This document shows positions 2,518 to 10,657 of a DNA stretch of 25,202 nt, piece after piece. Every line of letters starts with the position of its first letter. Positions within the stretch are counted from its first letter, which is position 1. The DNA comes from a virus. Taxonomy: Duplodnaviria > Caudoviricetes. Where the stretch lies: positions 1 to 25,202 of IMG/VR virus record IMGVR_UViG_3300033076_000654; one strand, given 5' to 3'. The translations under genes and the position numbers were made by a program. The notes beneath the pieces were generated by a model, which had not been told where the DNA came from, made no database searches, and worked only from the letters and a program-made list of their open reading frames with translations.

Positions 2518-2525
2518 CAAATATA
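2518..2525 (-). promoter_or_regulatory. Bacteroidota sigma70 -7 element TATATTTG for the scaffold/capsid transcript
   Basis: Matches TAnnTTTG in intergenic DNA, 23 nt upstream of ATG 2494. Confidence 0.65.
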
Positions 2526-2530
2526 GTAAA

Positions 2531-2755
2531 TTAACCGAAGACAATTTCGTCGTCAATCTTGACGATCAGATTGTCCGGATTTGTTTCGCCGTCTTGTTCA
2601 GCGTATTCGAAAACAAGTTCTTCGCCAACGGCAAGCGCTTTGTTCATTAAGTTGATCATTGTTGTTGAATCAACAACCGCCAAAAACGAAAGCGGCGATT
2701 CGGACGAAACAAACGTTTCGTTGTATCTTTTCAAAAGTTCAAAGAATTCTTTCAT
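2531..2755 (-). CDS. Small acidic protein, 74 aa; candidate immunity or inhibitor for the MuF-fused metallopeptidase
   Basis: Separated by 1 nt from the MuF fusion stop; 15 D/E versus 5 K/R; position is that of MuF toxin immunity genes. Confidence 0.6.
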   Translation of the reverse strand: MKEFFELLKRYNETFVSSESPLSFLAVVDSTTMINLMNKALAVGEELVFEYAEQDGETNPDNLIVKIDDEIVFG

Positions 2756-2756
2756 A

Positions 2757-4415
2757 TTATTTCAAAAGTTTTGAAGGCAAAAATTCTTTGACAACGTGTT
2801 CGAAATAATATTCATTCATTAAGTCGAACAATTCCGGGAATTCGTCGCGAAAGATCGGATTGTCAAGAAAGTAATTTTCAGAAGCGTGCGCGAAGAATTC
2901 CATTCGAGCCATTGAGCCGCGATTTTGTGTTTGATATTTTTTGCCGTGTCCGTAGCCGTATTTTGCACCGGTCAAGGCTTCGATTGTGTCAAGATAGGCG
3001 CCGACTAATTCGTCGATATACTTTTTCGGAATTTGCTTGTCGTATTTTTGATATGCCTTTTGATAAAAGTCATTCAAGTTTTGAAATCTTGTTTTGAAAT
3101 CTGAATCATTTTTCAAACGATCTGAAACAAGTTTTTTTGAATTCAAAAAGGCTTGTTCTGAAAAGTATTGATTGAAGTCGATATTGTGTCCGAACAAACG
3201 TCTTTCAAGGTGCAATCGGTGTCCGTATTCGTGAACAACAACCCTTAAAAGATTTTCATTTGAAGAATATCTTGATCCGGTTCCGACAACAACCTTTTTC
3301 GAACTTGGCGAATAGAACGCGCCGTCCGCTTTTACTCGATCAGTTCCGCGTTCAAAGGTTCCGTTGTCGGAAAGATCAAAAAGAACTTGCGGCAAGCCTT
3401 GAAGATTTTCAAGATCCTTCGGCGTCTTGCTGGATTTGTAAGTATAAAGATCTTTGATTTCTTGTTCTGCGCGCGGCTTGAAGACTTGCGATTGTTCCGG
3501 CTTTGCTTCTTGCGTCGCTTGTCCTTCTTGTTCCTTCAAGAACTTCTTCTTCATTGAAGGTGTCATTTTGAAAGGTATTGCGGAATGTCTGCAATTATAG
3601 CCGCCGCGATAAGTCGCGAAGGTTTCTTTGTTGGTTCCCGGAATCATTCCGGTTCCGTTGCTTATTGCCCAAGAAATTTCTTTTTCAAGTTCTTCTTTCA
3701 AGACAACGCCTTTTCCACTCCACCGGATACATTGCGCGCGCGAATCGTCGATCAAGGATCCGACGTATCTGAACGCGTCAAGTTCATATTCTTGCGCGAT
3801 CTTCGAATTGACTTGTCCGTCGAACTGATTCAACGCGTCGCGCGAAACTTGCGTAACATATCGACGAAGAAGCGAATTGCCGGCTTGCGTCGTTGTGATC
3901 CAAGTTCGAAGCGCGCTTTCAAGATCCGTGATTGTGGATCCTGCAACAATATTTTTGAATATCCCTTGTTTCACCGGTTCAATGAATGAAGTATTGACGC
4001 CGGATCCGGTCAAGCCGTCGATCGTTTGTTGTGTGATCGCTTTTTGAATCGGATTGATCAGATCTTCAAGTTCATTTTGTGAAAGATCGTTCACGGATTT
4101 TTGAACGTCAAAATTGAATTGCTTGATTGTTTGAAAGTTCCTTAAATAGGCTTTAATAGGCGGTGAATAAGCCTTCAATTGATTGACAATGATTTGATCG
4201 ACTTCGTTCAGCAAGTCAACGTTCTTGTCGTCAAAAATAAGATTGTTTCCGTCCTTGTTCATTTTGGAAACTTGACGACGAACCGCTTCGAAGATCTTGT
4301 CTTCGATCGGTGTCAAAGAATTCAACAAGTCCTTGTCGGCTTCGACAATTGCGTTTTCCTTCTTTGTCAATATCTTGATCACGGCGTCGTCAAAGCCGAA
4401 TTCGTCTTTTGCCAT
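2757..4415 (-). CDS. MuF / SPP1 gp7-like minor head protein with a C-terminal zincin metallopeptidase domain, 552 aa
   Basis: Follows the portal. MuF-type motifs DSRAQC and GGYNCRH (3585-3605), then a Q/E/K linker, then HEYGH (HExxH, 3219-3233) and a downstream EFFA (ExxA, 2889-2900). Confidence 0.85.
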   Translation of the reverse strand: MAKDEFGFDDAVIKILTKKENAIVEADKDLLNSLTPIEDKIFEAVRRQVSKMNKDGNNLIFDDKNVDLLNEVDQIIVNQLKAYSPPIKAYLRNFQTIKQFNFDVQKSVNDLSQNELEDLINPIQKAITQQTIDGLTGSGVNTSFIEPVKQGIFKNIVAGSTITDLESALRTWITTTQAGNSLLRRYVTQVSRDALNQFDGQVNSKIAQEYELDAFRYVGSLIDDSRAQCIRWSGKGVVLKEELEKEISWAISNGTGMIPGTNKETFATYRGGYNCRHSAIPFKMTPSMKKKFLKEQEGQATQEAKPEQSQVFKPRAEQEIKDLYTYKSSKTPKDLENLQGLPQVLFDLSDNGTFERGTDRVKADGAFYSPSSKKVVVGTGSRYSSNENLLRVVVHEYGHRLHLERRLFGHNIDFNQYFSEQAFLNSKKLVSDRLKNDSDFKTRFQNLNDFYQKAYQKYDKQIPKKYIDELVGAYLDTIEALTGAKYGYGHGKKYQTQNRGSMARMEFFAHASENYFLDNPIFRDEFPELFDLMNEYYFEHVVKEFLPSKLLK

Positions 4416-4419
4416 TCGT

Positions 4420-4427
4420 CAAATTTA
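4420..4427 (-). promoter_or_regulatory. TAAATTTG -7 element, 4 nt before the MuF ATG (overlaps the portal stop)
   Basis: Minus strand reads TAAATTTG-acga-ATG. Confidence 0.55.
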
Positions 4428-6347
4428 AGCAATTCCGCCCGGTGCCGCCTTTGGCGTTCCAAGAATTCGACGCGCTTTCGCTTCGTCAAATCCGTAAATT
4501 TCAACAAGCAAAGCGACGGCGCTTTCGAAGTCCGTTGTTCCGGCTGCGACTGATTGTTGAAGTTGAAGGATCCCTTGAACGCCCCCGACGGATCCTTTCA
4601 AGTTCGCCTTTGCTTCGGCTTCTTTGGCAAGAACTTCTTGATTGATTCCGAATTCTTGTCCGCCGGAAAGATCGATCACTTGCTTCGGGATATTTGATTC
4701 AAATATCGGAATCATTGCTTGATCCAGCGCCGCGAAAATATCGTTCAAATTTTGTTCAAGAAATTCGGTTCCGTTTTCTGCGATCAATTTCATTAAGGTC
4801 TTGTAAGAAAAAAGGGATTTCAAAAGATCTTCTTTCTTGATTGTTCCGGCTGCAACAAGTGCGGCTTTGTCGGACGCCTTCAAGTGATATATCGGATCGT
4901 AAGAAACAAGAACTTCAACGATTCTTGAAGTTGCTTTGTTGCCGGAAAAGCGCTTCTTCGCAAGATCCTTCGTCGCTTCAACAAGAAAAGCAACCGGCGC
5001 GTTCTTATCGGTCAACTTTGAAACTTCGTCAATCAAATCGGATTCGGTCTTCATTGAAAACGAAATCGGTTTCACAATTGTCGGATCCTTTGGATCTGAA
5101 ACGTTCCGATATTTTTCAATAAAGATCAAAGATTTGAAAATGATTTCGTCAAAAAGATTGTTCGAAATTTTTGTCAATTGGGCGAACGAATCTTCGCGAT
5201 CAATTTCTTTCGCCGTTCCGGATTGCGCTTCGTCGATTGTGTTTAAGTGAAGCGCTTCTTCGGCTTTCTTCAATAACGTTTCCCAAGCCTTGCCCGAATA
5301 TTCAATCACGCCAACGTCGGGCGAAATGAATCGAACAAGCGGATCGCTGGACGATTGATCAGTTCCAAAAGCGGCGCTTCCTTTTTCGCGTAAAAAAACG
5401 CCGTAAGGTGAACGCGAAACAACGCGTCCGGTTCCTTTACATTTTTTGCAAGATTCGGATTCTTCGCTTTCGGTATTGAAAACAATTCCTTCACGGCAAC
5501 CGGGCGCGTCGCAAGTTTCCGCGACTTCTTCGCGATAAGGAAAAGCGCTTGTTGTCATTACGCCTTGCCAATCGCTATATTGACGAATCGCTTCGTTTGC
5601 AAAAGGAACAAACGCGCTGAAATATGAATCGAAATATTTTTCGTGTGTTTGATCGCCGCCTAAAACACAACCCGGAATCGATCCGATTTCGTGAAGATAT
5701 ATCAATTCAACTGCGAACTTTCGATCGCGATCGTTGCCGTATTGCGTGTGACGATAAAAGCCTTCGCGCGTTAAAGTCAAATAAACGTCGCCTTCTTGAA
5801 CTTGCTTTCCGTTCTTTGTGATCCAAGATTTCGCGTCTTCGTCTTCCCAAGAAATCGCGTCTTTTGACAAGAATTTGATTTCGTCGGAATCTATTAAAAC
5901 CGGTTCAACTTCAACTTTTTGCGTCGGATCAATCAACCCTTCGCCCTTTGGGATCCAAACAAGCCAAGCGTTCGGATCTTCGATCATTCGCGGAACAATA
6001 AACTTTTGAATGTATGAATAAAAGAATTGATTGTCGAACTTCTTTTCATTCAGATAAACGGAAAGTTCGTCGGAAACTTGAATCGAAAAGTTCGCGTTTT
6101 GAAAGATCCGGAAAAGTTTATCGATCGCCCTTGTCATTGATCCCTTTGTGATCGGTTCGTAAATTGCAAGACGATATTTTTGAACGTCCGGATCTTCATT
6201 CGGACGGCGCTTTGTCAAGATTTCGCCCGGATCAGTTCCGCGCGTGTGAACAAACATTTTTTCGCGGACTTCAACCCACTTGTCGAAGTGCTTCGGTTTG
6301 AATTTTTTGTCGGCGATCAAGCCGTTGATTTCTTCGATTGTGATCAT
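4425..6347 (-). CDS. Portal protein, about 640 aa, with an inserted Cys4 zinc-finger-like segment
   Basis: Large helical protein immediately upstream of MuF. The start is moved to ATG 6347 because it forms an ATGA overlap with the upstream stop. Contains CDAPGC...CKKCKGTG. Confidence 0.8.
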   Translation of the reverse strand: MITIEEINGLIADKKFKPKHFDKWVEVREKMFVHTRGTDPGEILTKRRPNEDPDVQKYRLAIYEPITKGSMTRAIDKLFRIFQNANFSIQVSDELSVYLNEKKFDNQFFYSYIQKFIVPRMIEDPNAWLVWIPKGEGLIDPTQKVEVEPVLIDSDEIKFLSKDAISWEDEDAKSWITKNGKQVQEGDVYLTLTREGFYRHTQYGNDRDRKFAVELIYLHEIGSIPGCVLGGDQTHEKYFDSYFSAFVPFANEAIRQYSDWQGVMTTSAFPYREEVAETCDAPGCREGIVFNTESEESESCKKCKGTGRVVSRSPYGVFLREKGSAAFGTDQSSSDPLVRFISPDVGVIEYSGKAWETLLKKAEEALHLNTIDEAQSGTAKEIDREDSFAQLTKISNNLFDEIIFKSLIFIEKYRNVSDPKDPTIVKPISFSMKTESDLIDEVSKLTDKNAPVAFLVEATKDLAKKRFSGNKATSRIVEVLVSYDPIYHLKASDKAALVAAGTIKKEDLLKSLFSYKTLMKLIAENGTEFLEQNLNDIFAALDQAMIPIFESNIPKQVIDLSGGQEFGINQEVLAKEAEAKANLKGSVGGVQGILQLQQSVAAGTTDFESAVALLVEIYGFDEAKARRILGTPKAAPGGIA

Positions 6348-7432
6348 TTGCAATTTAGTGATTGTGAACAATTACAACGTTCGGCTTTGGCTTCAATAAA
6401 CCAATGTGAACCGATTTCATTGTTCTTTGAAATTTCGCCTTGAACTTGATATTCTTTGCCACCGATATAAACGTCGCGCCCGGCGAAGATAGTGACAAGC
6501 AACTTGACAAATCTTTGCGGCGCGTGCTGGCTTCGAAGCGTCCAATTTTCGCAAATTTGCGAAGCGGTTGTTTTTAGTGAAGTGTTAACGACTTGTTTTT
6601 GAAGATCAAAGTTGTCTTGTTCAAAAGAACCCGGAACCCGGATCGCGTTTGAATATTGAAACGGCGCGCCCCAATAAGCCGAAGAATTTGTTCCGTAATA
6701 AAGCCCGAAACAATCTTTTGAAGGGTAAATTGATTCGACAAGAATCGACTTCTTGCCATTGCTGCACTGAATAGCCTTAAAAGGTTCAGAACAAAAACAA
6801 ACAACTTGATCGCGATTGAAAGCGTAAGGCAAAGGAACGGCGCTTGTTGCAAAGCAAAATTTGAAATAAAAGCAATTGTCGCCGGTTTGTTGCAAGACAA
6901 GATTCGCGATTGCGTCAAGATCAAAACGGATTTGCTGAATCGAATTTGTCGATTCGGCGCCCGAATAATCGCTTGTTGTGTAAGTTCCGACGTAAGCGTC
7001 CAAAAACAAAGAATCAAACGTTTCTTCGTCTGAAACGCGAATCGCTTCGTCTTTACAACAAGAATAAATTTCAAAAGAACAAAAGCCTTCGTCAAGCGGC
7101 GCTTGCAATCCCGGATAAGTCCAGCCGTAAAACTTCGCGTTGTCTTTGATTTGATAGGGTTGTTGAAACTGAAAGTCAAACGTGTCATCGGATTCAAAAG
7201 GAATCCAAAAGGCGGAATCATTCGCGCAAAGATTGCAATTCCAAGAATCCGAACAATCACAAAGGATCAAGCCATTGTTGACGATCGCGAACGAACAATC
7301 GTCCGATCCGCCGCAAAGGATTTTCAAGTCTGAACAAAGAACCCTTGAATTCGGTTCTGGAAAGATACATTCCGGCGTTATATCGCAAAAGATCGCGTTT
7401 CCGGTTTGATATGAATTGAAAAGTTCAGCCAT
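6344..7432 (-). CDS. Cys-rich tail or tail-tip structural protein, 362 aa (possibly distal-tail-like)
   Basis: Lies in the tail module after the tape measure gene; beta-rich; 22 Cys counted. The specific role is inferred only. Confidence 0.55.
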   Translation of the reverse strand: MAELFNSYQTGNAIFCDITPECIFPEPNSRVLCSDLKILCGGSDDCSFAIVNNGLILCDCSDSWNCNLCANDSAFWIPFESDDTFDFQFQQPYQIKDNAKFYGWTYPGLQAPLDEGFCSFEIYSCCKDEAIRVSDEETFDSLFLDAYVGTYTTSDYSGAESTNSIQQIRFDLDAIANLVLQQTGDNCFYFKFCFATSAVPLPYAFNRDQVVCFCSEPFKAIQCSNGKKSILVESIYPSKDCFGLYYGTNSSAYWGAPFQYSNAIRVPGSFEQDNFDLQKQVVNTSLKTTASQICENWTLRSQHAPQRFVKLLVTIFAGRDVYIGGKEYQVQGEISKNNEIGSHWFIEAKAERCNCSQSLNCK

Positions 7433-7450: not shown

Positions 7451-10400
7451 TTAAGGACAAGCCGCCGTTCCGATTTTCATTGTTATTACTCCGGTGTAAT
7501 TTGTACCGGTGTAGGCTAATTGAAAATAAATATATCCGGCGGTATTTGTTCCGCCCCAAACAAAAGGAATTGTTCCACTTGTTGCGCCTATCGGAATAAT
7601 TCCGTCCGAAGGACGTGATCCCGGAACAAAAAAGCCGCCGTTCGCCCCAGCCCAAAAATGAAGCGGCTTTGTTAGTGGCGTACTGCAAGAATATTCAAGA
7701 ACGTAACTTGATCCAACAATAGGCAAGCCCAAAGAAGAATCAGAAATAACGACGTTTCTATATCTTCCGTTCCCGGCGTTGTTTGCCGTCAAAGAAAAGT
7801 TTCCGCCGCCTAAACTTGCGCAAGTTAAATTTGAACCGCCTTGACAAACAATCGTTTGAAAATATTCACAAACAAGAACCGCCGGCGGCGTTGAAATGTA
7901 GCCGCAAAGGCGAACTTCCGAAGCGCCGGAAAGAACCGAAGGATCGAATTCAATCATTGCCGTCAAAGATCCGTCGAAGACTGAATCTTGATAAGTAACG
8001 CCCGGAATTGACAACAAAGGAATTCCAAAAGGCGAAGCGTTGATTTCGGCTTCTTGAATGTAAGGCAAGCCGAACGGCGCTTTTTCCAAGAAGAAAACAA
8101 AGTCACCTTCTTCAAGTGAAGCGTAAGTCACGCGGATTGAAGAAAAGTCGTCCGGACAAAAAGTTTCGTTAATATCTTGATAAACGCCCGAAGTAATTGA
8201 AAGCCCTTCAATTCGAACGCCGGTCAAGATTGAATCAAATCCGGAATTGTCGTTTTCGAAATCGATTGCGTTGACTTTGAAGGCTTGAACAATATTCCAA
8301 GTGAACCCGGATCCGAATATTGAAGACAAGTCAAATTCAAAACGATATTCAAAAAAAACGTCTTCTTCGATCCAAGAATTGTTGACGTTGTTCGTTGAAA
8401 TGTAAGTCGGCGACAAAGCGCCGGCGTTTGTTCGATTCAAATATTGCGCCGTCGGTGCAATCAAAACTTGTCCGGTGAAAGGCGATTGATCCCAACGAAC
8501 GCGCGTCAAAAAGTGAGTTTTCAAAAGTGTCGTTCCGTCGTCTTCAACGATCAGATCGTTCAAGTTTTGCCAACCGCCCGGAAAGCCTGCAACGCGGTTC
8601 GAAATATGAATCGAATCGACAAAGAAAGTCGTTTGAGTTGCCGACGGAAAAGCGTTTGATCGCTTGTAAATTGTTAAAGTGATTCGCTTCAAGAAATCAC
8701 GCCAAACAACGCCCGGCGTTATCAATCCCCAATTATCAAGGCAAGTCTTGAAATCGCCGGCTTCAAGCGTTAATCGGTGTTGAATTCTTTCCTTTGGTGC
8801 TGGCTGCAAACAATCCGTCGTTTGTGATTGAAACAACTGATCGAATTCACTTGTCACTTTTGGGGTGCAACCGCAATCAAGATCCGGAAGTTCAGTCACC
8901 GAAATAGGATCAGAAAGAAACGTGTTTGCCGTGATCGTATCGTTGCCATAAACAACCGCCGCAATCCGGTAAGTTGAAGAAGGATTGATTGTTGTTCCGA
9001 CGAAGCAAGTCACGCGCCAAACGTTCGGCGCAACGTTTGCAAAAGTCGAAGGTGAATTCAAATGATTATCGATCACGCCAACGCCGCCAACGTTCAAAAT
9101 TTGCGCGCGGCTTGAATCGTAATTTGTCAAGAAGTCAATCGAATTGTCGAATTGCGTTTCGTCAAACATTTGAAGAATGATCCCGGAAGCGCCGCCGTAA
9201 ATTGACGGAATTGTGATTTCAAAACTTACCGCCGTTTTTTCAATCGTTGAAAAGTTTGTAACTGAACCAACTGATCGCGTAAATTGAAACGAAGGCGAAT
9301 TGAATTCGCTTGATCCGTTGTAAAGCCCTTTATTATACCAACGCGCCGAAAACTTGATTGAATTCGTTTCAATACATTCGAACGGCATTTCGTCAACAAG
9401 AACGTTCGGATCTTTCAAATAAAACATTGAACAAAGTTTCTTGTTCGAATTATAGACGGACGGCAAAACGTTTGCCCAATCAGTCAAGCCGCTTGAAATA
9501 TTGCGTTTGAATTTGATATTGTTGACAAAGGTTGTCGCATTGATTAAAGATTCGAAATCAGAAATCAAAAAGAAGTTGAATTGAATTTCAAATTCACCGG
9601 CGGCGGCGTTTGTTGGGGTGAAGAAGGCTTCAAAGTTCTTTTGATTCAAGGCATTGATCCCGGCACCGATCAAAGGCATTGCGATTTGAACGCCGTCGAT
9701 CATTGAAGAATCGTATTCAATGTAATAAGCCACCGAAGGCGGCGCAAGAACCGAAGAAAAGTCACAAACAAAAGCGAACAAGATCGGATTGAACCAAATT
9801 TGAACGCCGTTCGTCAATGTATTCGGATAAACAAAAGAAAACTTCATCAACTTCTTGTCTGCGATTGTTGAAGTGACAAGATCCAGCGATCCGCAAAGTT
9901 TGTCAATATCGCGAAGAAGTCCGTTTTCGGTTCCGATTACGACGTCCGTACAAGCAAGACAAGAAACGTCTTGCTTTGCAAGTCCTTGAACGTGAGTTCT
10001 GATATTTGCCGGATCTTTTCCGCACCAACCGAAAAGAAAGTCGCAATCAAGAATTTGATCTTGCGACGAAGGCGTCCAAGTTATTGAAATTGGAACCGAA
10101 GATCCGAACGGAATGATTCCGTCAATATCTGAAAAAGTAAATTCCGAAGCGTTACAAAAACCGGCGTCAACTTTCCAATTGATAAAACCGATTGTATTGT
10201 TCACCATATTAACCCCAATCGTTGAAGAAGTTCCGAAAAGAACTTCACCGAAGTCGATCGGTTGCGGCGTTACAATTGTAAAAGGATCAACGCATTGCAA
10301 AGGGATATAATAATTGCCTTCGTTGCCGTGTTCAGCCGTTACAAAGTCGAATTTGACGTATCCGTCCGAAAGTCCTTCGGCACAAATTGCAACTTCAAAA

Positions 10401-10657
10401 GATAAGGTTTCACCGGGCGCGATCCAATATCCGAAATTCGGCGGAATGTCGCCGTTCACACTGATAAGCGTTGAAGTATAGTTCACGCCGGCACCGGTTG
10501 CGCCTATAATATCAAGCAACTTCAAGTTTGTATTGTGAACGTTCTGAATTGTGAACGTTGATCTTTGGCAACAATCGCAAAGAATTTTGTTCGGCGTTGC
10601 CGGATTGTAAGTATCTTGAAAGATCTGATCCGAAATAATTACAAGTTTTCTTGCCAT
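7451..10657 (-). CDS. Large tail-tip or fibre protein, 1068 aa, with N-terminal Ig-like (ASH / choice-of-anchor-D-like) domains and a Gly-rich C-terminal putative receptor-binding domain
   Basis: Patterns FTIQN...IAPGETLSFEV and PQPIDFGEVLFGTSSTIGVNMVN...IPFGSSVPISITWTP match ASH/PapD-like Ig folds; position is downstream of the tape measure gene. Confidence 0.7.
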   Translation of the reverse strand: MARKLVIISDQIFQDTYNPATPNKILCDCCQRSTFTIQNVHNTNLKLLDIIGATGAGVNYTSTLISVNGDIPPNFGYWIAPGETLSFEVAICAEGLSDGYVKFDFVTAEHGNEGNYYIPLQCVDPFTIVTPQPIDFGEVLFGTSSTIGVNMVNNTIGFINWKVDAGFCNASEFTFSDIDGIIPFGSSVPISITWTPSSQDQILDCDFLFGWCGKDPANIRTHVQGLAKQDVSCLACTDVVIGTENGLLRDIDKLCGSLDLVTSTIADKKLMKFSFVYPNTLTNGVQIWFNPILFAFVCDFSSVLAPPSVAYYIEYDSSMIDGVQIAMPLIGAGINALNQKNFEAFFTPTNAAAGEFEIQFNFFLISDFESLINATTFVNNIKFKRNISSGLTDWANVLPSVYNSNKKLCSMFYLKDPNVLVDEMPFECIETNSIKFSARWYNKGLYNGSSEFNSPSFQFTRSVGSVTNFSTIEKTAVSFEITIPSIYGGASGIILQMFDETQFDNSIDFLTNYDSSRAQILNVGGVGVIDNHLNSPSTFANVAPNVWRVTCFVGTTINPSSTYRIAAVVYGNDTITANTFLSDPISVTELPDLDCGCTPKVTSEFDQLFQSQTTDCLQPAPKERIQHRLTLEAGDFKTCLDNWGLITPGVVWRDFLKRITLTIYKRSNAFPSATQTTFFVDSIHISNRVAGFPGGWQNLNDLIVEDDGTTLLKTHFLTRVRWDQSPFTGQVLIAPTAQYLNRTNAGALSPTYISTNNVNNSWIEEDVFFEYRFEFDLSSIFGSGFTWNIVQAFKVNAIDFENDNSGFDSILTGVRIEGLSITSGVYQDINETFCPDDFSSIRVTYASLEEGDFVFFLEKAPFGLPYIQEAEINASPFGIPLLSIPGVTYQDSVFDGSLTAMIEFDPSVLSGASEVRLCGYISTPPAVLVCEYFQTIVCQGGSNLTCASLGGGNFSLTANNAGNGRYRNVVISDSSLGLPIVGSSYVLEYSCSTPLTKPLHFWAGANGGFFVPGSRPSDGIIPIGATSGTIPFVWGGTNTAGYIYFQLAYTGTNYTGVITMKIGTAACP

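Follow-up and report, generated by a model that had tools for sequence, protein, structure and literature searches.

A MuF head protein with a predicted zinc peptidase tail and a small partner gene, exchanged together among uncultured phages that probably infect freshwater Bacteroidota

The window (the whole 25.2-kb stretch of DNA that was analysed) is a fragment of a tailed phage whose virus record is 73% complete, and every annotatable gene is encoded on the minus strand. The portal gene (4425..6371; PHROG 7376 (phrog_7376), E 3e-8) lies directly upstream of a MuF gene (2757..4415), which is followed by an ORF of 74 aa (2531..2755), an ORF of 102 aa and the presumed scaffold and major capsid genes. 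The last two were named from position and size, and neither had a family match. For the presumed capsid protein and two structural proteins rich in Cys (137-1165, 6344-7432, 7451-10657), neither PHROG nor Pfam gave a family over the cut-off. The phages of the window form an uncultured clade with genomes of 31-37 kb, the capsid of which has no cultured relative. Contigs matching the window came from two freshwater studies and one unlabelled metagenome; contigs of three studies span this stretch piecewise and show no cassette joint.

The MuF gene encodes a 552-aa minor head protein with a predicted C-terminal zinc peptidase (ORF call, Pfam, PHROG). Its first 277 residues (3585..4415, minus strand) constitute a MuF2-like core that is kept in 46 viral loci. 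The match to PF06152 (MuF2; E 2.2e-5, 24 bits) falls just below the cut-off of 26.3; together with a match to the minor head protein family PHROG 581 (phrog_581, E 0.0019) and the adjoining portal gene, it identifies the protein as a MuF within a portal module. The original prediction had described a MuF domain ending in GGYNCRH, and this motif indeed ends at residue 277. The linker that follows (residues 278-315; 3471..3584, minus strand) had been called charged; it is more exactly basic (8 K/R, 4 D/E) and Q-rich, and it contains a swap point near nt 3518, located by blastn to loci L002 and L003.

The remaining part of the protein, residues 316-552 (2760..3470, minus strand), is a domain of a type that we term T1 and that resembles the lethal-factor zincins. 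The three motifs claimed for it are all present: HEYGH at residues 395-399 (3219..3233), GYGHGKKY at 487-494 (2934..2957) and EFFAH at 506-510 (2886..2900). H395, E396 and H399 are the predicted zinc ligands and general base, and E506 the predicted third ligand. In an alignment of 20 tails with 24-75% identity to that of the window, residues H395, E396, H399, H402, D476, G487, G489, H490, Y494, E506, A509, H510 and E513 were invariant. An HExxH motif with a conserved downstream glutamate ligand, the hallmark of gluzincins, was thus found in 20/20 tails. In the AlphaFold model of the domain (pLDDT 92, pTM 0.90) three strands precede the HExxH helix, as expected for a zincin fold. In a VIA structure search, Certhrax ranked first (Z 8.7, rmsd 4.8, 166 aligned residues), with matches also to lethal factor 1yqy (Z 8.0, rmsd 3.9, 149 aligned), PPEP-3 (Z 6.5) and PPEP-2 (Z 6.4); most later rows were zinc peptidases. 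The predicted zincin fold is therefore closest to the lethal-factor and Pro-Pro-endopeptidase type domains (Z 8.7-6.4). Foldseek against the PDB returned the same neighbours without significance (best E 0.25, none at E <= 0.001). These middling fold scores (Foldseek E 0.25; Z at most 8.7) weigh against the explanation that we favour below. When the tail profile was run against PDB sequences, the matches were to immunoglobulins only and were discarded as chance hits.

The active site of lethal factor comprises H686, E687, H690, E735 and Tyr728 (PMC3496994). The invariant Y494 would play the part of Tyr728; it lies 12 residues ahead of E506, and the corresponding Tyr-Glu distance in lethal factor is 7. 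The T1 model shares its predicted fold and the HExxH...Y...E layout with the lethal-factor zincins (ATLF PF07737, lethal factor domain IV, PPEP-2/3), but differs from them in sequence (12-17% identity, rmsd 3.8-4.8), in its own GxGH...Y signature and in belonging to a phage head protein without the parts for delivery into animal cells. Neither the window protein nor six T1 tails matched the ATLF (PF07737) HMM, and the T1 tail of the window protein reached no Pfam cut-off; a sister tail type, T2, does match ATLF (L044, 30.7 bits). A sequence neighbour of T1 is M90 (PF06167), and a weak match below cut-off was obtained to the zincin-like MPTase family PF18818 (E 5e-4). The latter family recalls the virion-linked HExxH peptidase domains of polyvalent proteins (Iyer 2017, PMC5512222); the single tail on a MuF protein with a dedicated partner gene is a layout that the accessible part of that paper does not describe.

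The T1 domain has 205 relatives among clusters at 50% identity. Among the 150 of these 205 matches that were listed, 96 are at least 400 aa long, and the GH...Y signature occurs in 96/96. A MuF Pfam match was present in 48 of the 79 long homologues scanned, three of which are portal-MuF-peptidase fusions, and the Foldseek neighbours of the peptidase in BFVD are viral minor capsid proteins. By these sequence comparisons T1 is a broad, head-linked clade of putative peptidases. The tail and the presumed capsid protein of the window had no match among cultured phages. In one relative (L014) the motif is duplicated within the peptidase at the MuF end and a second peptidase fragment lies downstream, at about 7974; this may reflect a misassembly or be left over from a former cassette.

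The 74-aa ORF (2531..2755, minus strand), a member of a family that we term S2, starts with its ATG 1 nt past the MuF stop codon and encodes an acidic protein (15 D/E, 5 K/R), both as originally noted. Co-occurrence, fold and co-folding mark it as a predicted active-site inhibitor of the peptidase. No match to the family was found in Pfam, PHROGs or NCBIfam, and a protein search gave 19 matches without genomic context. Modelled alone, the partner is compact, with three helices and a beta part (pLDDT 92); the best structural neighbours (Atlas 0.78, BFVD E 0.09, VIA Z 3.8) do not establish a new fold. The dN/dS ratio ranged from 0.07 to 0.51 in 9 pairs of the small gene and from 0.08 to 0.30 in the 8 of 9 peptidase pairs that were computable; both genes are under purifying selection. 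Pairwise identities of S2 and T1 correlate (r 0.80), in part due to shared descent.

Co-folding of the peptidase with its partner gave an ipSAE of 0.77, compared with 0.00 for the best of three controls, and placed the small protein over the predicted zinc site. Among solved complexes 116 of 157 attain the mark used here, and among mismatched pairs 2 of 215; these counts apply only roughly to complexes with their own alignments. The runs agreed in at least 94% of contacts (91-99 contacts; partner pLDDT at least 87). On the peptidase, the predicted interface includes H395, E396, H399, H490, Y494 and E506. In the model, partner residues 23-27 pack against the G489-H490 loop and D476, and residues 57-63 lie on the GH loop and the zinc site, with Pro60 against H399 and Asp61 within the interface. 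Asp61 is invariant in a partner alignment of 20 rows, one short row of which is uncertain, and in the model it could reach the metal. The predicted complex has the look of an active-site plug. Binding at the active-site cleft would also suit a small protein that is a substrate, a chaperone or a targeting adaptor, and the model does not discriminate between inhibitor, substrate and adaptor. The compact fold of the partner (pLDDT 92) and the large interface (91-99 contacts) speak against such roles, as does the finding of a partner specific to each toxin type, a pattern shared with proven MuF immunity proteins; we regard them as highly improbable. An enzyme with its cognate inhibitor, taken alone, is in our judgement very probable.

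The suggestion that the peptidase is a swapped-in module was borne out at the DNA level. The relatives L002 and L003 are about 85% identical to the window up to position 3518, where the alignment stops, and it resumes at 2532/2508; between these breakpoints they carry T2 and an unrelated partner family, S1, in place of T1 and S2. The breakpoints bracket peptidase and small gene exactly and define an exchangeable cassette (2533..3517, roughly 2530-3517, minus strand) that consists of the end of the linker, the peptidase and the small gene. On a tree of 40 MuF cores, from which some near-duplicates and truncated rows were omitted, the T1 label requires 12 changes, at least 8 of them forced by well-supported branches, and it is no more clustered than in shuffled labels (120 of 500 shuffles were as low). 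As many of the loci are near relatives, their counts overstate the number of independent events, for which the tree gives at least 8. The combination of T1 and S2 was also present on unrelated MuF carriers in different head modules (L055, L058, L067).

The original prediction had inferred a swapped-in module from AT-richness. The G+C counts it gave are exact (33 of 120 nt at 3061-3180, 59 of 120 nt at 3781-3900), but both stretches are picked extremes: 33 is lower than every tiled 120-nt count of the window (minimum 34, mean 51.6). Over the whole peptidase domain the GC content is 38.8%, against 43.7% in the MuF core, and 41.0% in the small gene. The AT-rich stretch (3061..3180, minus strand; about residues 412-452) corresponds to the helical insert that is least conserved in the domain and does not mark the whole module. 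AT-richness was thus a weak sign and was rejected as proof of acquisition, a point that rests on the comparative data instead. One contig that is about 95% alike on both flanks diverges across 218 nt of equal length within this variable insert (window 2991-3210), which suggests an exchange of the peptidase insert segment alone.

The tails of the 46 viral loci that share the MuF core were sorted into types. T1 was found in 15 loci besides the window and T2, another HExxH domain with ATLF matches, in 16; the other tails are PARP-like (3, one of them truncated), ART-ending (1), a zeta toxin (1) and T4, a further HExxH type (2). Five loci encode short MuF proteins without a tail, and three more stop before the tail can be typed. 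Six tail types and short forms therefore occur on one MuF family, as is characteristic of interchangeable toxins. A profile scan added 10 further T1 contigs, giving 26 in total, one of which ends within the gene. S2 lies directly after T1 in 24 of the 25 contigs with a visible gene end (one S2 is cut by the contig end), including 10/10 T1 loci that were found after the S2 profile had been made, whereas the profile matched none of 31 non-T1 MuF loci. The small gene thus co-varies with the peptidase type, as proposed, and this distribution (24/25 against 0/31) together with the predicted complex makes it a cognate downstream ORF. T2 is followed by S1 in 16/16 loci, ART-type tails by a third, Cys-rich partner in 3/3, and in 5/5 cases no partner follows the short MuF genes. 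The S1 proteins (e.g., L003:7761-7961; 16 loci in all) have about 65 aa, an EWF motif and no Pfam match. One Cys-rich small family stands behind two different ART-type tails (L017:8767-8970, L029:4803-4991). The MuF-zeta toxin gene of L019 (2791-3100) has no small gene on the same strand, and by eye the gap may hold a convergent ORF on the opposite strand.

Neither of two outcomes named beforehand as contrary to the original prediction, the lack of a zincin fold and a small ORF conserved independently of the peptidase, arose; the sole exception to the pairing is L022, where from 3749 onward an intact T1 stands in a different downstream context without S2. The T4 tails (L037:2620-4293, L039:5995-7668) have no partner gene at all. 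L022 and these two T4 loci show that a cognate inhibitor is not needed for every peptidase tail to be tolerated, which counts against the explanation favoured below. In L063 (3050-5643), where an ART-like domain comes after T1 in the MuF protein, S2 is again the next gene downstream, so that the partner goes with the peptidase also where another domain ends the protein; the layout of P0143 resembles that of L063 (T1, then ART-like).

These tails also bear on the idea that the peptidase cuts the MuF protein or other head proteins during maturation, with the small protein as a timer acting in trans. Autoproteolysis has been proposed for virion peptidases such as P1 DdrB (Iyer 2017, PMC5512222), Pfam and PHROG scans of the window turned up no dedicated prohead protease, and the ART domain behind the L063 peptidase could be released by cleavage. 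Close relatives carry ART, PARP-like or zeta-kinase tails or no tail, so head building needs no peptidase, and we consider a self-processing role very improbable.

The lifestyle of these phages was assessed in 18 relatives of at least 90% completeness, 5 of which have terminal repeats. Tyrosine integrase, ParA, HTH_3 and rve were all at 0 in these genomes, in a search that detected its controls, and no resolvase was found above cut-off; three weak resolvase matches below cut-off, in frames of 607-629 aa that are probably portal genes, were set aside. Of about 80 ORFs in two genomes, 66 were compared with PHROGs, and no lysogeny gene was among them. Absence is judged here on four Pfam families, which divergent genes might escape. 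In contigs of GTDB genomes, the two weak matches to a possible T1 prophage copy were unrelated host genes and were rejected, and all 78 matched clusters of the presumed capsid are represented on contigs of at most 40.6 kb. By these sequence searches the phages of the window are likely non-integrating.

Just past the cassette, upstream of the 102-aa gene, lies TAnnTTTG (2518..2525, minus strand), an element like the Bacteroidota-type -7 promoter consensus (PMC6847099). Among 27 distinct sequences from upstream of this gene, 20 have it at a distance of 23-31 nt, against a background of 2.5% per 60 nt; a sigma-70 scan remained at chance level. By eye, 18 genes of the window have A-rich starts and no visible Shine-Dalgarno motifs, and two homologues, one of the partner and one of the capsid protein, carry labels of Bacteroidota MAG proteins. 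Based on the promoter-like element, the gene starts and the MAG labels, the host is probably a freshwater member of the Bacteroidota. A promoter motif within 300 nt upstream of the inhibitor gene was seen in only 3 cassettes among those listed. TAnnTTTG also stands exactly 4 nt ahead of the ATG of three structural genes (10669, 7444, 4427, minus strand); these could give leaderless transcripts, and two of the three motifs overlap an upstream stop codon. The one before the MuF start overlaps the portal stop, is kept in 4 of 41 relatives and was not relied on.

MuF proteins with metallopeptidase tails have been catalogued before. In a survey of such proteins (Jamet 2017, PMC5576092), metallopeptidase domains make up 20% of 191 MuF toxins and small downstream ORFs follow in 89%, and its supplement lists MuF1-ATLF proteins in Aeromonas. 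A MuF-metallopeptidase with a small gene behind it is therefore not novel in itself, contrary to what the original prediction implied. The window agrees with those toxins in having a MuF gene beside the portal gene, a variable C-terminal toxin and a small downstream ORF, and the gene pair fits MuF polymorphic toxin-immunity systems in those features that could be checked here. It differs in that lysogeny genes were not found, T1 lies below Pfam cut-offs and the partner has no family match. In that survey, MuF proteins with known toxins were reported solely from temperate phages and prophages, none being found in virulent phages, and under its model lysogens are immune and the toxin slows their competitors. 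The shared architecture and the Bacteroidota MAG labels of the partner and capsid homologues would suit such a temperate-phage toxin, but the 18 relatives without integrase, ParA, HTH_3 or rve and without a resolvase over cut-off, the lack of a T1 prophage copy in GTDB and the capsid-cluster contigs of at most 40.6 kb (78 clusters) make it quite unlikely here. The association with temperate phages has published exceptions. The lytic Microbacterium cluster EJ phages encode a MuF-VIP2 protein and show no temperate features (PMC7302621); that protein is an ART toxin, for which the text consulted describes neither cassette exchange nor an immunity partner.

Close parallels for the small gene are Apk2 and Bxa, MuF-fused toxins of Bacteroidota hosts with a small cognate adjacent protein, which blocks the toxin by direct binding, as shown experimentally (PMC12226406, PMC11699363, PMC10083569). 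These are alarmone synthetases and ADP-ribosyltransferases of prophages, whereas the enzyme of the window is a peptidase known from sequence and models alone. No characterised MuF peptidase-inhibitor pair was found in the open-access literature searched. What is new here is an unnamed peptidase clade and a partner without family match in a probable Bacteroidota phage clade without integrase (0/18).

We favour, as moderately probable, a MuF protease that is made with its inhibitor, packaged in the head and delivered with the DNA, and that cuts a host protein at an early stage of infection. The peptidase tail and the small gene swap as a unit, co-occur and are both under purifying selection, and the predicted lethal-factor-type fold retains H395, E396, H399 and E506 as well as Y494, with the partner modelled on the GH loop and the zinc site. 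Given the gene spacing (a 1-nt gap or an overlap), protease and inhibitor would be co-translated late in the cycle, and the protease would be plugged during head assembly. The portal would draw the MuF protein into the procapsid in few copies, by analogy with SPP1 gp7, which is portal-targeted (PMC6316719). The protease may then reach the next cell without its inhibitor, or faster than it, and would cleave a host protein there, most likely one of defence or regulation. As no lysogeny genes were found in these phages, the inhibitor would protect the producing cell in the lytic cycle and not a lysogen.

A different use of the same pair would be as a weapon between phages, in which the delivered protease harms the cell or a co-infecting phage unless the resident phage has already made the cognate inhibitor, so that the cassette type serves kin recognition among competing lytic phages. 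The frequent swaps among near-identical phages, the type-specific partners, the broad toxins (ART, zeta kinase) among the interchangeable tails and the lysogeny genes not being found are consistent with this. Against it, orphan S2 genes were seen in 0/31 non-cognate loci, within MuF-centred flanks of up to 6 kb, and the inhibitor gene is part of the late head operon and is preceded by no conserved promoter motif; we hold this use to be unlikely. A wider proposal is that strictly lytic phages of freshwater Bacteroidota, forming a widespread clade, use the head protein as the base of a complete polymorphic toxin-immunity system, with protease, ART and kinase warheads swapped together with cognate antidotes, the cassette type deciding the winner of a shared cell and the 74-aa partner representing a new class of metalloprotease inhibitor with an invariant aspartate at the zinc. 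This is rather doubtful.

The role of MuF toxins during infection is still open, according to recent work (PMC10083569, PMC11699363), and those assayed in the studies cited here are nucleotide or ADP-ribose enzymes of prophages. The locus described here adds a pair built around a predicted peptidase, in which the cassette edges are sharp and the small protein is predicted to plug the active site, and related phages supply natural swap partners for studies of cross-protection. The inhibitor would make cloning of the protease and substrate trapping possible, and the lysogen-competition model would not apply to phages that are seemingly unable to integrate.
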